A DNA stretch of 63,217 nt. Origin: Escherichia coli. GTDB taxonomy: Bacteria > Pseudomonadota > Gammaproteobacteria > Enterobacterales > Enterobacteriaceae. The stretch lies in assembly GCF_003334255.1 (NCBI RefSeq), contig NZ_QOWU01000026.1; one strand, 5' to 3'. Made by a program: the position numbers and the translations under genes. The notes beneath the pieces are model-generated. The model was not told the origin of the DNA and ran no database searches. It was given only the letters and a program-made list of their open reading frames with translations. Of this stretch, positions 63,120-63,217 are shown piece after piece (the first letter of the stretch is position 1; every line of letters begins with the position of its first letter).

Positions 63120-63217
63120 ATGGCATTTAAACATTATGATGTGGTCAGGGCATCATCGCCGTCAGACCTCGCAGGAAAACTGACGCAAAAACTGAAGGAA
63201 GGCTGGCAACCCTATGG
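63120..63217 (+). CDS. Partial ORF (5' end only), possibly DUF1737-like
   Basis: MAFKHYDVVRASSPSDLAGKLTQKLKEGWQPYG... truncated by window end; family from memory. Confidence 0.35.
   Translation, partial: MAFKHYDVVRASSPSDLAGKLTQKLKEGWQPY

Follow-up and report, generated by a model that had tools for sequence, protein, structure and literature searches.

An open reading frame cut by the edge of an Escherichia coli sequence is the probable start of a prophage nanS-p esterase gene and of the late operon

What can be said of a gene of which 32 codons are visible, and does its position reveal where the late operon of its prophage begins? The question arises at the very end of a 63,217-nucleotide stretch of Escherichia coli DNA (assembly GCF_003334255.1, contig NZ_QOWU01000026.1), hereafter the window, where an ATG-initiated open reading frame (ORF) on the plus strand, at 63120–63217, comprises 32 codons and the two bases GG and stays open to the last letter. 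It had been proposed from the letters of the sequence that this partial frame resembles the DUF1737 N-termini found upstream of lysis genes in lambdoid and Stx phages, and that it may mark the start of the late region. The reading favoured here is that the frame is the start of nanS-p, a gene for a 657-residue prophage 9-O-acetyl-sialic-acid esterase, which would be the first coding sequence of the late operon and would encode a capsid-tethered enzyme. On the sequence comparisons set out below, the probability of this reading is put at about 0.88.

The ATG at 63120 is, as read from the sequence, the first possible start after an in-frame TGA at 63087–63089, and it is preceded on the same strand by a Shine–Dalgarno sequence, GGGAGG, at 63110–63115, from which it is separated by the four-nucleotide spacer ATTC. 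Translation of 63120–63217 gives MAFKHYDVVRASSPSDLAGKLTQKLKEGWQPY; since the leftover GG can encode glycine alone, the 33-residue peptide of the original prediction is exact, and the frame is indeed cut by the window end, as was stated there. An open stretch of 32 codons is by itself not significant as evidence of a gene and, given that these 32 codons are all that is visible and that a 44-residue ORF in another frame (63049–63183) overlaps them, a chance frame in non-coding DNA has to be considered. Such an origin is ruled out by the match of the 32-residue fragment to Pfam DUF1737 (PF08410; E = 6.7e-11, model positions 1–30 of 53), together with its identity at 28 of 32 residues (87.5%) to the N-terminus of the characterised NanS-p proteins of 933W and phi24B; the strong Shine–Dalgarno sequence before the ATG also counts against it, such that the chance of a spurious frame is negligible. 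The frame at 63120–63217 is therefore the 5' end of a nanS-p-type gene, codons 1–32 and two nucleotides, and this portion accounts for the N-terminal ~60% of the DUF1737 domain. In this regard, the resemblance originally proposed turns out to be a real Pfam match, both for the fragment and for the full-length protein (E = 1.4e-16) described below.

The sequence past 63217 is here inferred from identical flanks in other records, the window itself holding residues 1–32 only. A megablast search with positions 62500–63217 returned 100% matches in Escherichia phage PhiR12_3 (PV340552.1, host ECOR13) and in six complete E. coli chromosomes, that of strain G6/7 among them. By direct comparison, positions 54004–63217 are 99.96% identical to PhiR12_3 and positions 55004–63217 are 100% identical to E. 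coli G6/7, apart in both cases from the length of a 7-bp array. The window and PhiR12_3 are collinear from the integrase-side (left) end of the prophage, near 37839, onward, and on these alignments the window is read as host DNA followed by 25 kb from the left side of a PhiR12_3-like prophage. Within the collinear part (~37839–63217), mosaic replacements interrupt the correspondence at about 41559–43588 and 50276–51686.

In both PhiR12_3 and E. coli G6/7 the ORF goes on to 657 amino acids, and the full gene of 657 codons would accordingly end at a window-equivalent position of ~65093. The 657-residue protein bears the RefSeq name 'SASA family carbohydrate esterase' (WP_000874521.1; XSB41861.1 in PhiR12_3), which is also the name given at this site in seven of nine near-identical E. 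coli genomes (>=98.5% identity); in the other two, the copy of strain G1/2 is annotated as frameshifted and that of JNEC-KY177 is named 'DUF6645 domain-containing protein'. The frameshifted G1/2 copy (10993–12962 of the extracted locus) carries this latter name too, and its frameshift may mark a genuine pseudogene or stem from an error in sequencing.

Dependence on other records leaves room for a different outcome in the window's own genome, namely that the frame belongs to a short stand-alone DUF1737 protein, or to a truncated or pseudogenised nanS-p, instead of an intact 657-residue esterase. Precedents for each are at hand: 2528 of ~3000 DUF1737 proteins in Pfam/InterPro are single-domain (bioRxiv 10.64898/2026.04.10.717836), a short DUF1737 protein of phage vB_EcoS-640R1 matches residues 1–88 only, nanS-p genes interrupted by insertion sequences occur in some Stx phages (PMC10462455), and there is the frameshift annotated in G1/2. 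Nevertheless, genomes with the 657-codon ORF match the window at 100% identity over the 4 kb before its edge, and seven of the nine near-identical genomes have the esterase name at this place; given this complete identity of the flank, a stand-alone or truncated protein would be quite unlikely. The preferred reading, from the same comparisons, is that the visible residues would belong to the N-terminal domain of a large esterase and not to a small DUF1737 protein.

The domain content of the 657-residue ORF in the identical relatives is that of NanS-p. Pfam places DUF1737 at residues 3–53 (E = 1.4e-16, model positions 1–53), SASA at residues 83–274 and DUF6645 at residues 508–618, while structural matches are found to E. 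coli NanS/YjhS (PDB 3PT5; residues 71–391, E = 3e-118) and to the lectin-like C-terminal domain of NanS-p (PDB 6YP6; residues 438–653, E = 3e-43), and PHROG 143 matches the protein from end to end. In other words, the protein has the three-domain NanS-p architecture of DUF1737, SASA/NanS esterase and lectin-like C-terminal domain. No model in NCBIfam matches the esterase, or the DUF826, holin or Rz proteins encoded after it, and the naming therefore rests on Pfam, PDB and PHROGs. Of the SGNH blocks that have been tabulated for 3PT5 (GQSNA, RGGSAF, MQGEFD and SHFS; PMC10792757), all four are kept, as GQSN at 85, RGGSAF at 186, MQGEFD at 244 and THF with His372.

The closest characterised counterparts are L0105 of 933W (933Wp42 / Z1466) and vb_24B_21 of phi24B (gp84), which share the three-domain architecture, the position after Q and pR' and before DUF1378/DUF826, S, R and Rz, the STnc100 element just upstream, the catalytic blocks and two residues, Tyr42 and Gly54, of the phi24B capsid-binding domain. 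Identity to these two proteins is 58% overall, and is distributed unevenly, with 77% in DUF1737, 73% in the esterase and 48% in the C-terminal domain; at the latter value the glycan specificity of this carbohydrate-binding domain may differ from that of its 933W and phi24B counterparts. The carriers also differ, in that the prophage here is without stx genes and without the ileZ/argN/argO tRNAs, and its late promoter, unlike that of 933W, is parted from Q by a hok/sok module and a type IIG/BcgI-like restriction–modification (RM) block. NanS-p proteins are active Neu5,9Ac2 esterases, as shown for the EDL933 and O104:H4 alleles (PMC8065619), and the same activity is predicted for the present allele, which is 58% identical to NanS-p of 933W and phi24B. 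The allele itself is found at >=99% identity in 2 of 351 phage-collection records, the remainder being mostly <60% identical; the nanS-p region is nonetheless widespread in E. coli genomes, though this allele is uncommon among sequenced phages.

Two further groups of proteins are related in part. The chromosomal NanS (YjhS, PDB 3PT5) has the esterase core and SGNH blocks in common with the phage protein, including the Ser nucleophile in GQSN and the His in xHF. NanS is a periplasmic enzyme of ~326 amino acids belonging to the nan regulon, and it is not known to have the N-terminal DUF1737 domain or the C-terminal lectin domain, or to be regulated as a phage late gene. The single-domain DUF1737 phage proteins share the Pfam domain (PF08410), which is here fused to an enzyme of ~600 amino acids, and with it probably also the capsid-decorating fold (bioRxiv 10.64898/2026.04.10.717836).

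Whether the gene stands at the start of a late region can be judged from what lies on either side of it. On its 3' side, outside the window, the order after nanS-p in PhiR12_3 and E. coli G6/7 is DUF1378, DUF826, a class II holin, lysozyme, two small ORFs and Rz (with Rz1 embedded), followed by the terminase subunits TerS and TerL, the portal and head genes. The PHROG lysis families match the holin, endolysin, Rz and Rz1 proteins, in agreement with the annotations. This gene order is that of 933W and phi24B, the packaging and head proteins being 75–97% identical to those of phi24B, and it places the gene where NanS-p is expected, after Q/(stx) and before the holin gene S in the late region of a lambdoid prophage. 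The lysis cassette proper starts about 2.7 kb further along. Extension of the sequence and annotation of the S, R and Rz genes had been suggested as a check on the original prediction, with a downstream region devoid of lysis or structural genes as the outcome that would speak against it; in the near-identical records the opposite is seen, with a holin, lysozyme, Rz/Rz1, terminase and portal all found, and with the lysis cassette and morphogenesis genes following in the same orientation.

On the 5' side, within the window, positions 62501–62600 form a gap-free alignment of 100 nt, 88% identical, with the region of 933W that comprises pR', qut and a terminator, of which the pR' and qut features are annotated as 'putative' in 933W itself. 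The pR' homologue lies at 62517–62544 on the plus strand (TTTACA, a 16-nt spacer and TATCAT; aligned with AF125520 20666–20693) and was also found independently by a promoter scan, with 10/12 matches; the transcription start would be near 62551. The qut equivalent, ACATTGCC, is at 62558–62565 on the same strand, assigned through positional homology to AF125520 20707–20714. After it, at 62577–62600 (plus strand), comes a short GC hairpin with a T-run, the equivalent of the 'possible rho-independent terminator' that 933W has first after its pR'. The cognate antiterminator gene Q is upstream, at 58263–58688 (plus strand), its product being 70% identical to Q of 933W and named 'antiterminator Q family protein' in RefSeq. 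Given the homology of 62517–62600 to the 933W pR'/qut/terminator region, the late promoter lies about 575 bp before the ORF at 63120 (~570 nt from the inferred start), and this ORF is accordingly the first coding sequence to follow it. All of these elements of a late operon, promoter, qut, terminators and Q, are recognised by homology, and with them the proposal made for the ORF, of a late region that begins there, is borne out.

The strength of the individual terminators merits some caution. With a fold no more stable than that of shuffled sequence (z = -0.66), the hairpin at 62577–62600 is doubtful as an efficient terminator and was rejected as a candidate for tR'. Closer to the gene, the terminator scan detected a terminator-like hairpin, CTGCGCAACTGCGCGG, with a T-rich run at 63012–63035 (plus strand), 85 nt before the ATG. 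The fold of 62860–63050 has z = -2.9, and terminator-like sites are enriched overall, with 13 found against 5.0 expected.

An alternative start for the late operon is offered by the DNA next to Q. At 58685–58712 a strong promoter-like site (TTGAAA, a 16-nt spacer and TAGAAT) matches the sigma-70 consensus at 10/12 positions and overlaps the Q stop codon, a position like that annotated for pR' of 933W, across the end of Q; were it the late promoter, hok, the RM genes and STnc100 would all be in the late transcript, and the ORF would not be its first gene. The DNA after Q is, however, unrelated to the pR'/qut region of 933W, whereas 62501–62600 is 88% identical to it, and a Q protein that is 70% identical to that of 933W should need a similar binding site. 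Moreover, with the sok/hok Rfam match beginning at 58719, the location of the site would suit a promoter of hok, and in an Stx1c prophage with the same Q–hok–RM block stx1c is found after the RM genes. For want of homology to the 933W pR' the site was rejected as pR', and a late operon beginning there is improbable, if a little less so than a truncated esterase gene. The late promoter is thus placed at 62517–62544, with a distance between Q and pR' of ~3.8 kb that is taken up by cargo.

This cargo consists of hok/sok, a 7-bp repeat array and a type IIG/BcgI-like restriction-methyltransferase with its specificity subunit. The hok/sok module, at 58719–59043, directly follows Q (Rfam sok, 118 bits) and includes a 51-residue Hok/Gef ORF at 58888–59043. 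The array at 59227–59303 is a perfect tandem repeat, (GACCAGC)x11; the same array has 83 copies in the E. coli G6/7 locus (4224–4804 of the extracted locus), its length differs from that in the window in all nine near-identical genomes, on account of which no complete genome in the collection is an exact match to the window, and RefSeq calls a minus-strand 'YXWGXW repeat-containing protein' across it. The short array of the window could be due either to the hypervariability of a VNTR or to a collapse during assembly of the source sequence. At 59394–61355 there is a fused restriction-methyltransferase (PADLOC REase_MTase_IIG, E = 6e-228; annotated as BcgI-alpha-like / HsdM family), the type II specificity subunit of which is encoded at 61415–62509. 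Between Q and the late promoter, this pair occupies an unusual place for defence cargo.

Between pR' and the ORF lies a gene for the small RNA STnc100, at 62696–62912 on the plus strand (Rfam RF02076; 149 bits where the gathering score is 47, E = 3e-34). A stem at 62881–62902 and a T-run form its strong intrinsic terminator, as identified by the terminator scan. In 933W, STnc100 is found between stxB and nanS-p (3778–3983 of the extracted 933W locus). The similarity of the window to 933W stops after the first hairpin and resumes at about 62667, in what corresponds to the intergenic region between stxB and nanS-p in 933W, such that at the junction, 62601–62666, similarity jumps from just past pR' to the stxB–nanS-p spacer and an 'empty stx slot' results. 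The 3' segment of StxS with tR', the three tRNAs and stx are all missing from this slot, which holds the STnc100 sRNA only; a tRNA scan of 58000–63217 found none, the ileZ/argN/argO cluster of Stx phages being absent. In the Stx1c prophage of strain 2013C-3033, which is the relative with the same Q–hok–RM block mentioned above, stx1c lies between the RM genes and the esterase gene.

Some smaller features accompany STnc100. A 47-residue ORF at 62682–62825, listed as 'hypothetical protein' in GenBank/RefSeq, overlaps it and is probably spurious. The antisense sRNA AsxR, which in 933W lies next to STnc100, was sought there in the window and was not found even at E <= 1. At 62913–62979, where 933W has AsxR, there are weak chance Rfam matches on the minus strand, as well as a GC-rich minus-strand hairpin followed by a T-run (62941–62920, then T7); the hairpin may belong to an unrelated antisense sRNA or to a bidirectional terminator.

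The control of the gene can be considered against this arrangement. In Stx phages pR' is constitutive and its transcript is terminated shortly downstream in lysogeny, whereas on induction Q-mediated read-through extends into stx, nanS-p and the lysis genes (PMC7547250; PMC10462455; PMC8065619), and nanS-p is strongly up-regulated along with the late genes (PMC8065619; PMC10462455). By analogy, transcription would here start at a 933W-type pR' and run across STnc100 as well as two to three intrinsic terminators, and nanS-p would be reached efficiently only once Q renders RNA polymerase terminator-resistant during induction; the predicted Q-dependence of the ORF follows from the homology of the promoter, of the qut-equivalent site and of Q. 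The arrangement recalls the lambdoid order of pR', qut and tR' with a leader RNA, such as the 6S RNA of lambda or StxS of Stx phages, there being here several intrinsic terminators before the first late gene. Compared with 933W, the promoter, qut equivalent and first hairpin (~88% identical) and Q (70%) are retained, but the 3' part of StxS and the tR' that, in Stx phages, maps 258 nt away from pR' (PMC7547250) are absent, similarity ending ~50 nt after the start, where STnc100 follows instead.

STnc100 starts only ~145 nt past the inferred pR' start. A pR' transcript that has not been antiterminated might therefore end at the STnc100 terminator. Taken a step further, such a transcript would run ~357 nt into this terminator (62881–62907), STnc100 would be a leader-derived regulatory sRNA akin to StxS or lambda 6S RNA, and Q would release first the gene of a mucin esterase tethered to the capsid, the divergent lectin domain of which (48%) may have a new glycan specificity. 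This extended picture is offered tentatively, as a suggestion that could easily prove wrong.

The proposed tether has its origin in work on phi24B, in which gp84, the NanS-p homologue, was reported in a preprint to be a virion component (bioRxiv 10.64898/2026.04.10.717836). Its DUF1737 domain (residues 2–57), a fold of one helix and three antiparallel strands, forms a hexamer that plugs, via Tyr42, into the hexon at the centre of each T=9 facet; the density ends at Gly54–Ser57, and the enzyme part is cleaved off after about this point (bioRxiv 10.64898/2026.04.10.717836). For the capsid role, then, there is a single 2026 preprint, concerning a homologue in which DUF1737 is 77% identical. Both Tyr42 and Gly54 are conserved in the 657-residue ORF, the head proteins of PhiR12_3 are 90–97% identical to those of phi24B, and the homologue of vb_24B_29, a 404-residue protein, is 93.6% identical. 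The visible residues are thus most likely part of a module that binds the capsid. On this basis, the late-expressed enzyme would be tethered to the capsid and later be cleaved off and released. Its SGNH/SASA domain would strip mucin sialic acids of their O-acetyl groups, and its C-terminal domain is a lectin-like jelly roll. The enzyme would in this way de-O-acetylate the mucin sialic acids of the host, and so aid the phage, the lysogen or both in the mucus layer.

A different view of the protein would be that it is purely a metabolic enzyme of lysogenic conversion (a 'moron'), which serves growth of the host on O-acetylated sialic acids, and that DUF1737 is without a capsid role and would instead assist, for example, in folding, oligomerisation or release. 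NanS-p esterases do indeed let lysogens grow on Neu5,9Ac2 and remove the O-acetyl groups of mucin (PMC8065619; PMC8319020), and capsid binding has been documented for phi24B only, in one preprint. Yet a gene placed after pR' and behind several terminators occupies a late, induction-dependent position and not one from which it would be expressed in the lysogen, while the capsid proteins at 90–97% identity to phi24B, and the conserved Tyr42 and Gly54, are what a capsid ligand would call for. A purely metabolic role would leave both the late-operon position and the phi24B structure without explanation and is considered unlikely, though it carries appreciably more weight than the other alternatives weighed above. 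The metabolic and capsid roles of NanS-p are, in any case, compatible with each other and not mutually exclusive, and the capsid-tethered, late-expressed esterase remains the preferred reading.

As regards its wider meaning, the edge-ORF finding is correct and ordinary. The nanS-p gene, its family and its genomic position have already been described and annotated in public records, and with an identical protein already deposited there is little consequence beyond correct annotation. What the analysis does establish is where the window ends, 98 nt into the gene that would come first in the late operon of a stx-negative, 933W/phi24B-like prophage, and that the late promoter of this prophage is placed at 62517–62544 and not beside Q. 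If the 2026 preprint holds, DUF1737 acquires a concrete annotation as a capsid-binding domain. Finally, the site between pR' and STnc100/nanS-p, at which both the Stx1c relative and 933W have their toxin genes, is empty here, and this empty slot helps in reading such prophages as potential backbones for the acquisition of stx.
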